Shown in pieces: positions 23,849 to 30,519 of a stretch of DNA of 64,000 nt. The DNA lies in sequence record PZ179882.1. The stretch is one strand, 5' to 3'. The notes beneath the pieces were generated by a model. It was not told where the DNA came from. It did not search any database and saw nothing but the letters and a program-made list of their open reading frames with translations. A program made the translations under genes and the position numbers. The first letter of the stretch is position 1; the number at the start of each line of letters is the position of its first letter. This DNA is from a phage.

Positions 23849-24067
23849 TTAAACTCTCGTATTATGATCGATAATTTCATCAAGAAACATATCTAACGCT
23901 TCTAAAGCATTATCAACTTTAGCTTCAAATTCTTCAATACCTGATAAGGCAAAGTTAATGCGTTCCTCATCTGCTTTGCGAATTAAAGCTACCAATTCTT
24001 TAATTTTATCTGCTTGTTCAATGCTAGTCATTATTCCACCACATATGAAAGAGAGAATATTGCACAC
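23849..24067 (-). CDS. Hypothetical protein
   Basis: ORF track 72 aa. Confidence 0.4.
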
Positions 24068-24264
24068 GCCATATGAGTTGCAGCTTCATCACACATATCA
24101 TAACGTTTCTTAAGAAGTTCTACAAGTTCTTCACTAGTAACTTCATCCATGTCGACGAAAAAATCACCATTAATGATGACGTAGATATTTCCTTCTTGAT
24201 TGAGTGCTTCAATTTTCATGATGTTCTCCTCTTTATCCGATGGTTGTATAGTATCACAGCTCAA
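24031..24264 (-). CDS. Hypothetical protein
   Basis: ORF track 77 aa; downstream of promoter 24248..24277 if internal start is used. Confidence 0.4.
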
Positions 24265-24277
24265 ATTGAAAGTAAAC
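24248..24277 (-). promoter_or_regulatory. T4 early-type promoter
   Basis: GTTTAC 24277..24272, TACTAT 24253..24248. Confidence 0.55.
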
Positions 24278-24314
24278 TGGTAAAATGAAAAAAGTCTCCC
24301 GAAGGAGACTAATG

Positions 24315-24701
24315 TTATTCGAGGGAAAGAAGATATTTGCTCTGGTAAAACATCCCAGTAATATCATCTATCGTGCTTTGAATGGCTGGAGGCATTTCTT
24401 TATAAATGCTGTTAGATTGGTCTAGTATGCGATCAATCATTTTAATTGTGTCGGTAGGAAGTTTACTGGCATCCGGAATTGACGGCGTGTATTTTCTACC
24501 AGAATACCCCAAATATTGCTCACCAAATTTATCAATCAAATCTGGCAACTCAGAGAAAATAAAATCGTATGCTTTGTGTCTAGCATAACTTTTAGTTTCA
24601 AAATGCGCAGAATGAAAATAAGCTTGTGCAGCCATTAATAAACCTAAGTATTCATCTGCCTTTGAAGGTTTTCCACTTTGTGAAAAGTCGCTGAATTTCA
24701 T
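24315..24701 (-). CDS. Hypothetical protein adjacent to rI
   Basis: ORF track 128 aa; ATGA overlap with rI stop. Confidence 0.55.
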
Positions 24702-24991
24702 TCAGTCTCCAATTTAATGTTCATAATTCTAGCGTATGATTGTGCCATCTCCGCGCCTCGCTCTATACATTCAAAATCGGAAGAGCACGGGTCATTTTTA
24801 TAAGTCGTTCGCATAAAACTATAGAACTGTTCAGATGATTCTACGCTTTTATTTTCAAAAAGCATATAAACGTGTCTAATACCAGATTCCATAAATTTAT
24901 CAAAATGAGGATCGACATTCGCTTCAATCGGTGGAGATAAAGCAAACGCTAATCCTAGCATGGCAAATAGTGCCGTTGCTTTTAAGGCCAT
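24698..24991 (-). CDS. rI: Lysis-inhibition regulator RI
   Basis: 97 aa; MALKATALFAMLGL...DPHFDKFMESGIRHVYMLFENK matches T4 RI. Confidence 0.9.
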   Translation of the reverse strand: MALKATALFAMLGLAFALSPPIEANVDPHFDKFMESGIRHVYMLFENKSVESSEQFYSFMRTTYKNDPCSSDFECIERGAEMAQSYARIMNIKLETE

Positions 24992-25003
24992 AAAGGCCTC
25001 CTA

Positions 25004-25216
25004 TCATTTTTGTCCTGTATTTACTTTATGCCGATGCACGGCCTTAACTTTATCAAGGTATTTTTCAAAATTTCGCAATCTAGTATAGTCTGCCGGAGAT
25101 TGGTTGAGTGATACTTCTCGACGCAAAGCTGAAATGATATTTCCAACTTCCCTACGAATTTCATCTAATTGAAGAACAGTAAGATTGCGAAGTTGCTTTT
25201 CAGTTAATTGTAGCAT
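25004..25216 (-). CDS. Hypothetical protein
   Basis: ORF track 70 aa. Confidence 0.5.
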
Positions 25217-25258
25217 ATATACCCCTTTAGTTAGATAAACCTATTTATAACTTTTGCA

Positions 25259-25840
25259 CTAACCGAGCTTTTTAGTTAATTCATTCCAATGTTTTCTACA
25301 CAAAGAAACATAAATTTCATCACCAATACAGATTTGATTACCTTCTTTAACTGGTGTTCCATCTTCCATTAATCGAGCTGTCATAATAGCTTTTTTACCA
25401 CAATGACAAACTGCCTTTAGTTCAATAAGTTTATCTGCAATCGCCAAAAGTTCTTTAGAACCTTCAAATAATTTTCCAGCGAAATCAGTCCTTAGCCCAT
25501 AAGCCATAACAGGAACATTATATGTATCGACAATTCGGCTTAATTGATGCACCTGTTCAGTTTTTAAAAACTGGGCTTCATCTACAAATACACAATGAAT
25601 ATCTTTTTGTGCTTCAGCCCATTTATAGAACTCAAAAATATCCATATCATCCGTAATAATATTCGCTTCCTGTTTAATTCCAATGCGAGAAACGACTTCA
25701 CAGACAGAATCACGAGTATCAATAGCAGGCTTAAGAACTAATACACCCATTCCGCGTTCTTTGTAATTATGTGCAGCAGTCAAAAGAGAAGCAGATTTTC
25801 CAGCATTCATTGCTGCGTAAGTAAAAATTAAACTCGCCAT
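25259..25840 (-). CDS. tk: Thymidine kinase
   Basis: 193 aa; P-loop AAMNAGKS and zinc-binding CHCGK...C motifs; matches T4 Tk. Confidence 0.92.
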   Translation of the reverse strand: MASLIFTYAAMNAGKSASLLTAAHNYKERGMGVLVLKPAIDTRDSVCEVVSRIGIKQEANIITDDMDIFEFYKWAEAQKDIHCVFVDEAQFLKTEQVHQLSRIVDTYNVPVMAYGLRTDFAGKLFEGSKELLAIADKLIELKAVCHCGKKAIMTARLMEDGTPVKEGNQICIGDEIYVSLCRKHWNELTKKLG

Positions 25841-25849
25841 ATCACCTTC

Positions 25850-26035
25850 TTAAAGCGTATTCACATAAGCTATTAATTCGTTTTCTTTCTTATCAAACCG
25901 ATCAGCAAATTCTTCTTGCTGATCGGGAGATAGCGGGCCGTATTCATCATAAAAGGTGTTTGCTTCTGTATGCTCATCTAGAAGTTCATGGATAAGCTCA
26001 AACAATTTATCTTTTTGTTCTTTACTCAGACTCAT
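25850..26035 (-). CDS. Hypothetical acidic protein
   Basis: ORF track 61 aa. Confidence 0.5.
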   Translation of the reverse strand: MSLSKEQKDKLFELIHELLDEHTEANTFYDEYGPLSPDQQEEFADRFDKKENELIAYVNTL

Positions 26036-26201
26036 ATATTAATTTCCAGGAGTTTTAAAATAATTCGCTTTTGCTTAAATATTTCCATAGTTAAATGACC
26101 AGTATCTTTTTGACCGATTCCAATGGCAAAACCTTTATTGACAGCGAGTTCAATTAAATTATCAAGCTCACATAACACTTCATATTGTAACTCAAAACTA
26201 T

Positions 26202-26429
26202 TCATTTTGGTTTACCTTCTTTAACGAAATCAGGATAAGGATAAAATCCTGAATAAAATCCTTCGCCTTTATGATTGACGCATCCTTTATTAGAGCAATA
26301 GCACCAATAATCGAAATCACAAGCCATTTCATCATTACATAAAGCAAAAACAACTGGCCATTCACACTTTTCGCAGTGGGCATTTTTAAGAATACTAGTT
26401 TGGCTCATAACCATGTAACCTTTAAACAA
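26202..26429 (-). CDS. Cys-rich small protein
   Basis: ORF track 75 aa; 11 cysteines; preferred over overlapping hydrophobic frame 26198..26383. Confidence 0.45.
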   Translation of the reverse strand: MFKGYMVMSQTSILKNAHCEKCEWPVVFALCNDEMACDFDYWCYCSNKGCVNHKGEGFYSGFYPYPDFVKEGKPK

Positions 26430-26617
26430 TATTCTTCTACATGTTGTTTACGACCTTTCCTATCAATAAAGGTATATTCAACGAATGTTCCAATATAGTC
26501 TTTATCTACATCATGTGGACTATTAATTGGGCATTTAGTACGGCAAATGCGTTCCCATTGACGAATAATTTCCACTTTGTTTTTAGGATCAAACGGATGC
26601 GGGTAATGTACTTTCAT
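26405..26617 (-). CDS. Hypothetical protein
   Basis: ORF track 70 aa. Confidence 0.45.
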   Translation of the reverse strand: MKVHYPHPFDPKNKVEIIRQWERICRTKCPINSPHDVDKDYIGTFVEYTFIDRKGRKQHVEEYCLKVTWL

Positions 26618-27068
26618 AATCCACCACTATTAAATCAATATCAGGAGTAAACATGTCGATTAATTTAGAAACCTTATCCCAATCGCCGCCAGCAATACCG
26701 CAACCTATGCGTGGAATGTAAATTACTGGTTTAAACAAAAGGGTTTCTGCCTGTAGATTTAATTCTATCATGCAGTTTACTAAAGCACCATAATCAAGAT
26801 TAGGACCCGGTTCGTATTGCGTATACAGGTTATAGCATATACCAAATCCTGTAGGATTATGTTTAAAAACAATAGACATATCACCTAATTTATCACGAGA
26901 ACCGTACTCGGTAGTGGTTTTATCTATTTCTAAAATTTTGGGATAGGCTCTTGCTAATTGACCTGCTACGCCAGAGCCCATTGTGTGGAAGCAATTACAC
27001 CCGTGCGCAATAATATTACCTTGAAGAAATAGGGCGACAATATCGCCCTTGATATATTTTACAATCAT
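26589..27068 (-). CDS. Macro-domain-like protein
   Basis: 159 aa; GDI...IIAHGCNCFHTMGSGVAGQL and IPRIGCGIAGG parallel the macro-domain N-terminal and FP-ISTG motifs. Confidence 0.55.
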   Translation of the reverse strand: MIVKYIKGDIVALFLQGNIIAHGCNCFHTMGSGVAGQLARAYPKILEIDKTTTEYGSRDKLGDMSIVFKHNPTGFGICYNLYTQYEPGPNLDYGALVNCMIELNLQAETLLFKPVIYIPRIGCGIAGGDWDKVSKLIDMFTPDIDLIVVDYESTLPASV

Positions 27069-27412
27069 CTAGTACTCAATCCTCGATTATAAGAATCTAC
27101 TAAACGGTCAACCATTGAATGACAAGCGGCTTTATCTTTCTCCTCCGCAACTGAACATTCTAAGGTATTCCACTTTTTAGCATATCGTTTTAACAATGTA
27201 TCATTTTTGTATCTGCTTGATTTATCTCTTTCTCCGTCTTTATATGCATATATTAATTTCTGCGCAAATTCAGCTTGGCATGCTTTATTTTTCCCACAAT
27301 AATCCGCGGCAGTACGGTTTACATACTCTCTAATTTCAGTATATGATGTATCTGCTAACGCAGAAGCAGAAAATGAAATTAATCCTATACATAAAACCAA
27401 AATTTTAGTCAT
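27065..27412 (-). CDS. Secreted small protein
   Basis: 115 aa; N-terminal signal-peptide-like MTKILVLCIGLISFSASALA. Confidence 0.5.
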   Translation of the reverse strand: MTKILVLCIGLISFSASALADTSYTEIREYVNRTAADYCGKNKACQAEFAQKLIYAYKDGERDKSSRYKNDTLLKRYAKKWNTLECSVAEEKDKAACHSMVDRLVDSYNRGLSTR

Positions 27413-27950
27413 TTACTATTTCCAAAAGTTTATTATTTTTAAGGTAATTAGCCTTTTCTAGGACTTCAGAAGCATATTTAGAACCTGCTTTAACATTCCA
27501 TCCCGAATTATAAGAGGATATTGCTTTTCTTATATCGCCCTTATGTATATTTAACCAATAAGAAAGTTCAATGTACGCCCAGGAAGCTGAATTGGACCGT
27601 TTATTCAACATTCTTTTTATTTCAGCATCGGTCATATTATAACCAAGTTCCTTAACTCTTGCTCGCATAGTAGGCAAATAATTTTGGAACATTCCATAAG
27701 CGTGATGCTTTGGTTTAGATTTTAAATTAACTCCGCCAGAGCTTTCTTGCCATAAAATAGCAGCCATTATATGACCTAATCCGCTCTTGTGGATATTTTT
27801 GTGTGTTTTATATTTTCCATCCTTAGAAAATTGTTCCCCGAATTGATACGCGTAACGCATGTTATCGAGTTGGACATTACTGAAAGTATGCTCGGAGCTA
27901 TGTGCCATCATTGAAATGGCCAATAGACCAGCGAGTAGTGCTTTTCTCAT
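27405..27950 (-). CDS. Secreted lytic-transglycosylase-like protein
   Basis: 181 aa; signal peptide MRKALLAGLLAISMMAHS; WQESSGGVN...YGMFQ resembles SLT catalytic ES and GLMQ motifs. Confidence 0.55.
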   Translation of the reverse strand: MRKALLAGLLAISMMAHSSEHTFSNVQLDNMRYAYQFGEQFSKDGKYKTHKNIHKSGLGHIMAAILWQESSGGVNLKSKPKHHAYGMFQNYLPTMRARVKELGYNMTDAEIKRMLNKRSNSASWAYIELSYWLNIHKGDIRKAISSYNSGWNVKAGSKYASEVLEKANYLKNNKLLEIVND

Positions 27951-27957
27951 GCTTACC

Positions 27958-28419
27958 TCATTGAGTTTTAATTACTGCTTTAGAAGCCTTTCCTGGTAAA
28001 CGACGACTGTTAATAATTGCCATCCTACATTGAAGTGACGGGTCTTTGAACTTCGCATTAGGTTTACAAACTGTAAATCCAAGCCAAAGATTTCCATCTG
28101 TGATTTCTAAACGTCCAGGACGGTATTCAACCCCATCAATAAAATCCTCATCAATGTCAGGACGCGGAGGCATACTCAGGAATTCATTAACTTCTAAAAC
28201 ATGGTCTTTTATTTTATGGAATAATTCAAAAACATATGTCTCATCAATCTCCCGTTGAATTGCACGATCAAGAAGATGTTGAGAATATTTTAGATGAAAC
28301 GATGAGACTCCTGCTGCTTTTGATGCCTCACGAATCTCATTGTTAATTTGACGAAACTCCGACTCAAAGTGACGACGAAGCTTATTTCGACGGATAAAAA
28401 CTTCTGTATTGATAGTCAT
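27958..28419 (-). CDS. regB: Endoribonuclease RegB
   Basis: 153 aa; MTINTEVFIRRNKLRRHFESEF... recognised as T4 RegB. Confidence 0.85.
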   Translation of the reverse strand: MTINTEVFIRRNKLRRHFESEFRQINNEIREASKAAGVSSFHLKYSQHLLDRAIQREIDETYVFELFHKIKDHVLEVNEFLSMPPRPDIDEDFIDGVEYRPGRLEITDGNLWLGFTVCKPNAKFKDPSLQCRMAIINSRRLPGKASKAVIKTQ

Positions 28420-28446
28420 GTTATTCTCCTCTTAACTGATAGAAAA

Positions 28447-28476
28447 ATTATACCACAGTCAAGAGGAAAAGTAAAC
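28447..28476 (-). promoter_or_regulatory. T4 early-type promoter upstream of regB
   Basis: GTTTAC 28476..28471, TATAAT 28452..28447. Confidence 0.6.
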
Positions 28477-28478
28477 AG

Positions 28479-28757
28479 TTATTCTTTAAATCTAATCAAT
28501 TTATTCATAGACTTTGAAACTTCTGCACGAACCTCATGTAGATTTTTGAGCTGTTCAAGACGCTGCTCATAGTAAGCAATTTCATCTTCTTCGAGACAGT
28601 CCTGTGAATCTTCTTTAAGATAACGTGCATAGTCCTGGAAAGCGTTACGAACTACTTCCTGGAAGTCATCAAGACTTTGAATTTTCTTAGGAGCAACAGA
28701 TACACGACGAGGGGCAGTATAATACTCATAACCAAACCCTGCGCTTAATTGAGCCAT
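28479..28757 (-). CDS. Hypothetical protein
   Basis: ORF track 28479..28799; ATG at 28757 overlaps upstream stop (TAATG); 92 aa. Confidence 0.5.
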
Positions 28758-29023
28758 TAATATTTTTCCTCTGGTTGGAACACTGCGCGACAAGCCCACA
28801 TACTGGCTTCTTTGAGTTTCATTTTAGCAATAGTTAACTGATCGAGGCTTTCGGCGTAATTCTTCGCGAGTTCATCATCTTCACAGCTATCAAATGCTTC
28901 CCAGAATTCATCATATAAAGCATCAAAGATAAGCCCTAAACGAACTTCAGCATCTTTGATAGCATTCACTTTACTGATTTTATCGTCAGTATGTGGTTTA
29001 TAACCTTTAATGTCTTCAATCAT
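28757..29023 (-). CDS. Hypothetical protein in the position of T4 vs.4 (Acb2)
   Basis: ORF track 88 aa; second ORF downstream of regB; assignment is positional only. Confidence 0.45.
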
Positions 29024-29237
29024 ATTTTACTTCCTCACCTGTTCCCAAATCATATTCAACTAAACGAATAGGTTCATGAATGCCATATCCTTGAACAGAA
29101 ATTTCTGTCGTAGGATAAATTCCATTAATATCACCCATGTTCCATGCTTCGTTAAATTGCTGTTCGCCTGAATTACTAAACCACTCGGCGAAAGCATTTA
29201 GCACATCTTCAGAACCTTCAATAATTATCTTTGCCAT
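29016..29237 (-). CDS. Hypothetical protein
   Basis: ORF track 73 aa. Confidence 0.5.
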   Translation of the reverse strand: MAKIIIEGSEDVLNAFAEWFSNSGEQQFNEAWNMGDINGIYPTTEISVQGYGIHEPIRLVEYDLGTGEEVKYD

Positions 29238-29599
29238 TACAAACTCTCGGTGAAGGTACGAGCGATAACGTCGCGCTGCTGTTCCGGAGTCAGAGAGTTA
29301 AAGCGAACTGCATAACCGGATACACGGATGGTCAGCTGCGGATATTTTTCCGGATGCTTAACTGCATCTTCCAGAGTTTCACGACGCAGAACGTTAACGT
29401 TCAGGTGTTGACCACCTTCAATTTTAACTGTAGGCTGTTGCTCAATTTCAATTTCACGGGCATGCAAACCATAGAAAATTTCTGGGTCTACAAAAGAGTC
29501 CTCTTTAAAGGTTTTAGAGACAATAATTCGTGCTTGAATACCATCTTCAAAATAAATAGTACCTTTATGTGTGCCTTCAAGAATTTGATATGCTTTCAT
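29237..29599 (-). CDS. Autonomous glycyl-radical cofactor (GrcA/YfiD-like)
   Basis: 120 aa; C-terminal [27 protein letters not shown] glycyl-radical motif. Confidence 0.75.
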
Positions 29600-29605
29600 A
29601 TAACC

Positions 29606-29935
29606 TCAATTAGAAAATAAATTTATCCAAGATTGTTCTTTAATTAAAAATGGCTCAGAATCATATGCCATTAAACTCTGTGTGATTAGTCCTTTAAAAG
29701 GCCCATCAATAAATTCCATGGTAAAATATGGAATTTTATTCATTAGCCGTGCATTAGGAGCCGTGCACAAAACTCTGCATCCTTTGAATACGCCTTTTTG
29801 TAATTTGTATTGCTTGGGATAAAATTCGCTCAAAATGTTATTTTTTGCCAAAATTTCAAAATGATTCACCAATTTATTTTTAATAGTTTTTGGCGAAAAA
29901 TAAAGATATTCGAAAAGCTGAGTGTCTGTCATCAT
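29606..29935 (-). CDS. Hypothetical protein
   Basis: ORF track 29606..29986; ATG at 29935 forms ATGA overlap with upstream stop; 109 aa. Confidence 0.45.
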   Translation of the reverse strand: MMTDTQLFEYLYFSPKTIKNKLVNHFEILAKNNILSEFYPKQYKLQKGVFKGCRVLCTAPNARLMNKIPYFTMEFIDGPFKGLITQSLMAYDSEPFLIKEQSWINLFSN

Positions 29936-30519
29936 TGCATTCCGATTACGAAAAACTGTGGACGAGTAATACCACCAATGCAACATTTAATATTACAGCA
30001 GCAGTGTACAGTGTCAATATGGACACTATAAATCTTATCCATATCAGGAGATTTGACAGGCTCATCAATTATATACAAAATTCGCGAAAGCGATAAACCT
30101 CTGAACTTGCTTCCTTTATTACCAATAAAACTGCGCACAGAATCAGTAAATAAACGAAAACGTATATCATCATTAGAATAACGCGAAAATTCCTTTTTAA
30201 TATTATCTGCGGAAATTTTAGCGTAAGCTGAAGTATTAGAAAGAACAATAACTGTTCCACCGTCATACAACCAATTAGCGGCAAAATTAGTTACTGCAGT
30301 TGATTTACCAGATTGACGCCCACCATCTAGTCGAAGTGTACAATACTGTTTAAGTAAGTCTTCAAATGGCGGGATATATTCGTTTTTACAAATTTCTTCT
30401 ACTCTAGCATCAGAATGGTGTGTAAAAGCATTCATCAGGGATAGATAAGGACCAGTTAAAAATGTTCTCATTTTGTTCTCTCTAGGTTTGGGCCATTCCA
30501 TGGCGCATGAATTGTCCAT
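29932..30519 (-). CDS. P-loop protein
   Basis: Walker A GGRQSGKST; alternative ATG at 30471 has better RBS. Confidence 0.5.
   Translation of the reverse strand: MDNSCAMEWPKPRENKMRTFLTGPYLSLMNAFTHHSDARVEEICKNEYIPPFEDLLKQYCTLRLDGGRQSGKSTAVTNFAANWLYDGGTVIVLSNTSAYAKISADNIKKEFSRYSNDDIRFRLFTDSVRSFIGNKGSKFRGLSLSRILYIIDEPVKSPDMDKIYSVHIDTVHCCCNIKCCIGGITRPQFFVIGMQ

Follow-up and report, generated by a model that had tools for sequence, protein, structure and literature searches.

The macrodomain gene described here lies in a 64,000-nt window of phage sequence record PZ179882.1 (the window being the whole stretch of DNA that was analyzed). On sequence evidence it corresponds to tk.4 (adfM) of T4, and its product, like the T4-like macrodomain Tk.4/AdfM, most likely strips the ADP-ribose placed by the host system DarTG2 off phage DNA. 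Judged from the sequence and a predicted model, the protein is a stand-alone, single-domain macrodomain of the TARG1/DarG/SCO6735 (ALC1-like) class. Its domain identity, fold class, active-site residue set and position relative to T4 can all be read directly from the data presented below. The domain itself has been known since the annotation of the T4 genome, with a printed mention no later than 2006, and publication of the anti-DarTG2 role followed in 2025. What goes beyond the literature that we found is the assignment of Gln84 to the active site and the presence of a mosaic allele, 58% identical to that of T4, between near-T4 flanks.

The gene is an ATG-to-stop open reading frame (ORF) on the minus strand, which carries every gene of this stretch (Table 1). 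Both the 159-aa ORF and the sequence quoted for it in the initial annotation are exactly as given there. The same annotation had placed the gene next to tk, which is near (25259..25840) but not adjacent, given that four small ORFs, about 750 bp, intervene. Directly upstream of the macrodomain gene is vs, and directly downstream a tk.3-like ORF, whose start overlaps the last 29 nt of the macrodomain gene. At the other end, the ATGA shared with the vs stop codon suggests co-transcription and, possibly, coupled translation. Searches of six neighbouring ORFs against NCBIfam assigned no family, so that the context adds only the gene order common to T4. A scan of positions 24000-30500 for sigma-70-like sites found 22 against 25.4 expected; being at or below expectation, it is uninformative on a dedicated promoter for the macrodomain gene.

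Table 1 Features of the macrodomain locus and its surroundings, with positions in the 64,000-nt window (identity to T4 given per 50-nt block where so stated)
Feature	Coordinates	Strand	Evidence or remark
Macrodomain gene, divergent allele in the T4 tk.4/adfM slot	26589..27068	-	ORF; 58% aa identity to T4 Tk.4
Overlap of vs stop and macrodomain start, ATGA	27065..27068	-	ORF coordinates and bases
vs (valyl-tRNA synthetase modifier), upstream neighbour	27065..27412	-	99% identical to T4; context only
tk.3-like ORF, 70 aa, downstream neighbour	26405..26617	-	91% identical to T4 Tk.3; context only
His22 codon	27003..27005	-	Corresponds to SCO6735 His24; aligned with the His of SCO6735, BT1257 and TARG1; invariant
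Asn25 codon, conserved macro Asn	26994..26996	-	Corresponds to SCO6735 N27, DarG N22 and PhiKZ AdfM N23
Gln84 codon	26817..26819	-	Column of the catalytic Lys (DarG K80, TARG1 K84); corresponds to SCO6735 Gln85
Gly124 codon, IGCG loop	26697..26699	-	Corresponds to SCO6735 Gly128; invariant
Perfect hairpin, 8-bp stem, 3-nt loop, codons 7-13	27031..27049	-	Terminator-like scan
Divergent mosaic segment	26591..27027	.	DNA 40-78% identical to T4, against 94-100% on both sides
Start of macrodomain gene, vs, start of vs.1	27028-27477		90-100% per block
Macrodomain gene	26591-27027		40-78% per block
tk.3-like ORF	26441-26540		94-96% per block
tk.1/tk.2 region	25845-26390		0-52% per block
tk	25245-25844		92-100% per block

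That the protein is a macrodomain, as the initial annotation had proposed, is borne out by sequence (PF01661, relatives in the PDB and a profile) and by the predicted fold. The Pfam Macro model PF01661 aligns residues 22-136 to model positions 2-117/118 with an E-value of 5.8e-8 and 33.1 bits, above its gathering cut-off of 22. The protein also matches PHROG 335 ('phosphatase') at E 1.6e-71 and has 795 homologues at E <= 1e-3. All three quoted motifs are present, GDI at residues 8-10, IIAHGCNCFHTMGSGVAGQL at 19-38 and IPRIGCGIAGG at 118-128, and fall within conserved loops of the macro fold. A single-sequence search of the PDB retrieved BT1257 (2AFC/2FG1, E 1.6e-10), yeast Poa1p (6LFU, E 1.5e-9), SCO6735 (5E3B, E 8.5e-8), the Mycobacterium tuberculosis DarG macrodomain (5M3I, E 4.8e-5) and TARG1 (4J5R, E 0.0098). 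With a profile built from 63 homologues the E-values were 2.5e-19 for BT1257, 4e-17 for TARG1, 4.6e-15 for SCO6735 and 3.9e-12 for M. tuberculosis DarG, whereas coronavirus Mac1 and other macrodomain types came only near 0.006. The predicted structure (pLDDT 93.7) has the macro fold, with three alpha/beta/alpha layers and a central mixed sheet. In the Foldseek comparison that the initial annotation had put forward as a check, its best match is human TARG1/OARD1 (4J5S, TM 0.73-0.75). Sequence and model together indicate a macrodomain resemblance that is far beyond chance, and in both respects the protein is nearer to the ALC1/TARG1-like class, which includes TARG1, DarG, SCO6735 and Poa1p, than to the MacroD, viral, PARG or macroH2A types. 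The stronger E-values to BT1257, TARG1, SCO6735 and DarG than to other types therefore point to the ALC1/TARG1-like class.

The window phage is a Tequatrovirus. Its rI.-1, rI, rI.1, tk, vs, vs.1, regB, vs.3 and vs.6 proteins are 97-100% identical to those of T4, in the same order, and Tk.3 and Vs.4 are 91% identical to their T4 counterparts. Flanked by vs and tk.3, the macrodomain gene occupies the place that tk.4 has in T4, and its product aligns gap-free with T4 Tk.4 (NP_049723.1) over 155 aa at 58% identity (E 1e-70). The two proteins are similar in length (159 and 155 aa in the window and in T4, respectively), have identical N-termini and share H22, N25, Q84, G122 and G124. However, the window gene is another allele, with 58% amino-acid identity against 91-100% for the flanking genes, and the phenotype known for tk.4 is that of the T4 allele.

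The T4 reference annotation describes tk.4 as 'phosphatase; contains A1pp phosphatase motif', and a paper of 2006 had already noted the A1pp domain match (PMC1524935). Later, work from the LeRoux lab found that T-even phages without AdfA and AdfN still resist DarTG2, from which a then unidentified anti-DarTG2 factor was inferred (PMC11257639). When a T4 transposon library was propagated on a host with DarTG2, HIDEN-SEQ gave just one significant hit, tk.4, and clean deletion of this gene made T4 sensitive to DarTG2 (preprint, bioRxiv 10.1101/2025.11.20.689424). The same preprint reports that the AF2 model of T4 Tk.4 resembles the M. tuberculosis DarG macrodomain, names the gene adfM and considers that enzymatic removal of ADP-ribose 'seems likely' (bioRxiv 10.1101/2025.11.20.689424). 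The DarTG experiment suggested in the initial annotation had thus already been carried out by others for T4 tk.4, and its proposal that the gene reverses host (DarT-type) ADP-ribosylation gains genetic support from the T4 gene at the same position (bioRxiv 10.1101/2025.11.20.689424). The function of Tk.4 explains the DarTG2 resistance of T-even phages.

In the 63 homologues, H22, G23, N25, C26, G33, A35, Q84, P119, G122 and G124 are invariant. Active-site columns were aligned by profile alignment and MAFFT, and the position of the catalytic lysine is occupied by glutamine in some proteins of the class. The motif at this position reads NLYTQ in the window protein and T4 Tk.4 (Q84) and NMIGQ in SCO6735 and BT1257 (Q85 in SCO6735), compared with NFPTK in DarG (K80) and YLITK in TARG1 (K84). 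The column of TARG1 D125 holds A126, and with Q84 and A126 in these columns the window protein lacks the TARG1 dyad as well as the lysine of DarG. Instead, its H22, N25, Q84 and G124 correspond to H24, N27, Q85 and G128 of SCO6735, the residue set of a Gln-type hydrolase. The motif mapping of the initial annotation holds in outline, with N25 as the macro Asn, MGSG as the first glycine loop and IGCGIAGG as the second, but it overlooked Gln84, which in the place of the catalytic lysine is the most informative residue.

SCO6735 removes ADP-ribose linked to thymidine in DNA and shields cells from DarT (PMC9411070). All activity is lost in its Q85A and Q85E variants, the N27 mutant loses activity, that of G128E is reduced, and the enzyme probably works through an activated water molecule (PMC9411070). 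Uracil-linked ADP-ribose on RNA is cleaved as well (PMC13036486). Given the matching residue set, chemistry of the SCO6735 type is the likeliest for proteins of the Tk.4 family, and by this analogy the window protein probably follows it rather than that of DarG. Like the window protein, SCO6735 and BT1257 are orphan, single-domain, ALC1/TARG1-like proteins with Gln for the catalytic Lys. In contrast, they are cellular rather than phage proteins, only about 26-28% identical to the window protein, and have 5-6 extra residues following the Gln, which are absent from the phage proteins. The lysines K34 and K89 of SCO6735, implicated in DNA binding, align with S32 and G88 of the window protein and are not kept, although other basic residues could take their place. 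At the one locus inspected for a bacterial homologue (Pelagimonas, P0096), no darT lies beside the gene, which is an orphan like SCO6735.

The best NCBIfam match of the window protein is the DarG antitoxin model NF048014. We rejected membership, given that the match reaches 27.8 bits against a cut-off of 250 and covers just the macro part of the 338-position model. Compared with DarG (T. aquaticus 5M31, M. tuberculosis 5M3I), the window protein has Gln84 for the catalytic K80 and lacks both the C-terminal DarT-binding domain and an adjacent darT, its neighbours being vs and the tk.3-like ORF. A TARG1-type mechanism was likewise rejected, since Q84 and A126 stand in place of the Lys84/Asp125 dyad. 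TARG1 itself, unlike the window protein, is without the conserved macro Asn; it also cleaves thymine- and uracil-linked ADP-ribose (PMC13036486).

In the mechanism that we propose, the host toxin DarT2 would ADP-ribosylate thymidines in single-stranded phage DNA and thereby block replication. The N25 loop, together with the glycine loops MGSG and IGCGIAGG, would form a cleft that binds the ADP-ribose, and there Q84, positioned by N25, would orient the substrate so that an activated water molecule can attack it, without a catalytic lysine. Hydrolysis of the thymine-ribose bond by the phage enzyme would restore replicable DNA, and the protein would then act as a phage-carried orphan antitoxin. 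By analogy with T4 Tk.4, we infer that the 58%-identical window allele does the same, and does so catalytically. Points against this proposal are the absence of the DarG/TARG1 lysine, the absence of lysine at the positions equivalent to SCO6735 K34 and K89, and the key genetics coming from a preprint. Given that the family is very widespread in phages, DarT2 need not be the sole target. If correct, the window enzyme would be a further case of a phage orphan antitoxin-like enzyme that chemically repairs the phage's own DNA once a host toxin has attacked it.

Protection could instead come mainly from binding and inhibition of DarT2 rather than from hydrolysis of the DNA adduct. This would fit SCO6735, whose catalytically dead Q85A variant is a stronger inhibitor of DarT in vitro than inactive DarG or TARG1 (PMC9411070), and divergence restricted to one gene is the pattern expected for fit to a variable host toxin. 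We nevertheless consider it quite unlikely for a bare macro domain of 159 aa that lacks the C-terminal toxin-binding domain of DarG; moreover, the residues invariant in the 63 homologues are those of the ADP-ribose site, which argues for selection on catalysis. Another reading keeps the hydrolase and changes its main substrate to uracil-linked ADP-ribosylated RNA, or to the adduct left by some DNA/RNA ADP-ribosylating defence distinct from DarT2. TARG1, DarG and especially SCO6735 do cleave uracil-linked ADP-ribose on ssRNA (PMC13036486), and the family, with homologues in 2859 phage records from many host genera, is possibly spread more widely than DarTG2 alone explains. However, the T4 phenotype is specific to DarTG2 and the literature that we found cites no bacterial defence that ADP-ribosylates uracil, which makes such a substrate decidedly improbable. 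Yeast Poa1p, an ADP-ribose-1''-phosphate phosphatase, is similar to the window protein in sequence and fold. An enzyme of this kind, or an O-acetyl-ADP-ribose deacetylase, could clear small derivatives during infection, but the 'phosphatase' labels of T4 and PHROG rest on domain matches, not assays (PMC1524935). Furthermore, DarTG2 sensitivity is the sole phenotype reported for the T4 gene, and there is no KptA/Tpt1- or sirtuin-type gene among the neighbouring genes, so that a metabolite enzyme is very unlikely.

T4-like phages ADP-ribosylate many host proteins, and Alt, ModA and ModB make arginine-linked ADP-ribose. The initial annotation had considered that a phage macrodomain might tune these marks, and one could equally imagine the reversal of protein ADP-ribosylation by a host ADP-ribosyltransferase, not least because TARG1 and SCO6735 also clear ADP-ribose from auto-modified PARP1 E988Q (PMC9411070). 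Arginine linkage is, however, not among the reported substrates of the TARG1/DarG/SCO6735 class, whose active sites act on thymine-, uracil- and acidic-residue-linked ADP-ribose, and the tuning of the phage's own marks is therefore unsupported. The Lys/Asp dyad that TARG1 uses for ester-linked protein substrates is replaced by Q84 and A126, and the reported phenotypes give no pointer to proteins. We regard a role on proteins, of phage or host origin, as highly improbable, and removal of DarT2 marks from phage DNA remains the reading that we prefer.

Identity to T4 was calculated in sliding 50-nt blocks from a MAFFT pairwise alignment, and within the tk.3-like to vs.1 interval the low values are confined to the macrodomain gene (Table 1). 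Replacement of a sole cassette is what one expects for an arms-race gene. With 58% identity to the tested T4 protein and divergence confined to the gene, in a backbone otherwise about 99% T4, a shifted specificity is possible. There are at least two allele groups in Tequatrovirus, the window type (>=95% identity, 276 records) and the T4 type (~58%). It is conceivable, although we hold it doubtful, that these alleles are swapped by recombination, with each fitting different host ADP-ribosylating toxins, either DarT2 variants via toxin binding, as known from inactive SCO6735, or other nucleic-acid ADP-ribosyltransferases. If such a specificity swap were true, the Gln-type phage enzymes would be broader erasers of nucleic-acid ADP-ribose (DNA thymine and RNA uracil) than those of the DarG type. 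The upstream breakpoint of identity between window and T4 lies directly 3' of the hairpin listed in Table 1, which is GC-rich, is followed by a T-rich run and is identical in T4 and OE5505 in a three-way DNA alignment. RNA folding of the 76-nt hairpin stretch gave -17 kcal/mol with a marginal z of -1.68. The hairpin may mark a recombination junction or act as an attenuator, or its placement may be coincidental, and its significance is weak.

The name AdfM has also been given to PhiKZ gp104, a stand-alone phage macrodomain that counters DarTG2 (Cell Rep 2026, PMC13309987). It removes DarT2 marks from DNA in vitro, and N23A reduces the removal (PMC13309987). Unlike the window protein, gp104 is a close relative of DarG with the lysine motif FPTK (E 9e-25 to M. 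tuberculosis DarG). A direct BLASTP comparison of gp104 with the window protein gave E 0.001 over 33 residues, and a single family for the two was rejected on this nearly negative result. With gp104 being Lys-type and DarG-like and Tk.4 Gln-type and SCO6735-like, the name covers two lineages with only a distant relationship inside the macrodomain class, and they look like two independent acquisitions. Two independent papers from 2025-2026 thus apply AdfM to macrodomains that are not counterparts of each other. For the biochemistry of Tk.4, the relevant family is the lysine-less, Gln-type one. The other anti-DarT factors of T-even phages are AdfN (gp30.3, NADAR) and AdfA (gp61.2) of T4 (PMC11257639). 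AdfN is also an orphan antitoxin-like DNA ADP-ribosylglycohydrolase, but both AdfN and AdfA have folds unrelated to the macrodomain and counter DarTG1 (guanine adducts), not DarTG2 (PMC11257639).

Homologues were found by tblastn in 2859 of 50,697 phage records, among them Straboviridae, Felixounavirus-like, Pseudomonas, Vibrio, Campylobacter and other phages. At the DNA level, 236 phage records have the gene at 95-99% identity and a further 4 at 99% or more. GenBank labels for it vary between 'phosphatase', 'hypothetical protein', 'macro domain protein' and 'Poa1p_like family protein'; in ESh34 and some other records the gene has no annotated feature, and in others, such as P0002, it is called with a truncated start (130 aa). 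Hundreds of entries from Tequatrovirus, and thousands from phages overall, call it 'phosphatase' or 'hypothetical protein', for which 'anti-DarT2 macrodomain (AdfM/Tk.4 family)' would be the better label.

The surroundings differ from T4 in further respects. Between tk and the macrodomain gene there are four small ORFs in the window compared with three in T4, and the interval from tk to the tk.3-like ORF (25845-26390), with three small ORFs in the window, is itself different. The window 'tk.1' matches T4 Tk.2 at just 54%. A 75-aa Cys-rich ORF with a TTG start (26202..26429) carries the motifs CEKC and CYCSNKGC and has no match in T4 by tblastn and none in NCBIfam. Further along, a 73-aa ORF at 29016-29237 (minus strand) aligns by tblastn with the T4 vs.5 region in two segments (60 aa at 90% and 18 aa at 94%), which suggests a frame change or an extension relative to the 58-aa T4 Vs.5. 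Among T4 genes, the upstream neighbour vs is reported to show the strongest depletion in M9 minimal medium (bioRxiv 10.1101/2025.11.20.689424), so that, with adfM needed under DarTG2, two conditionally important genes stand back to back.
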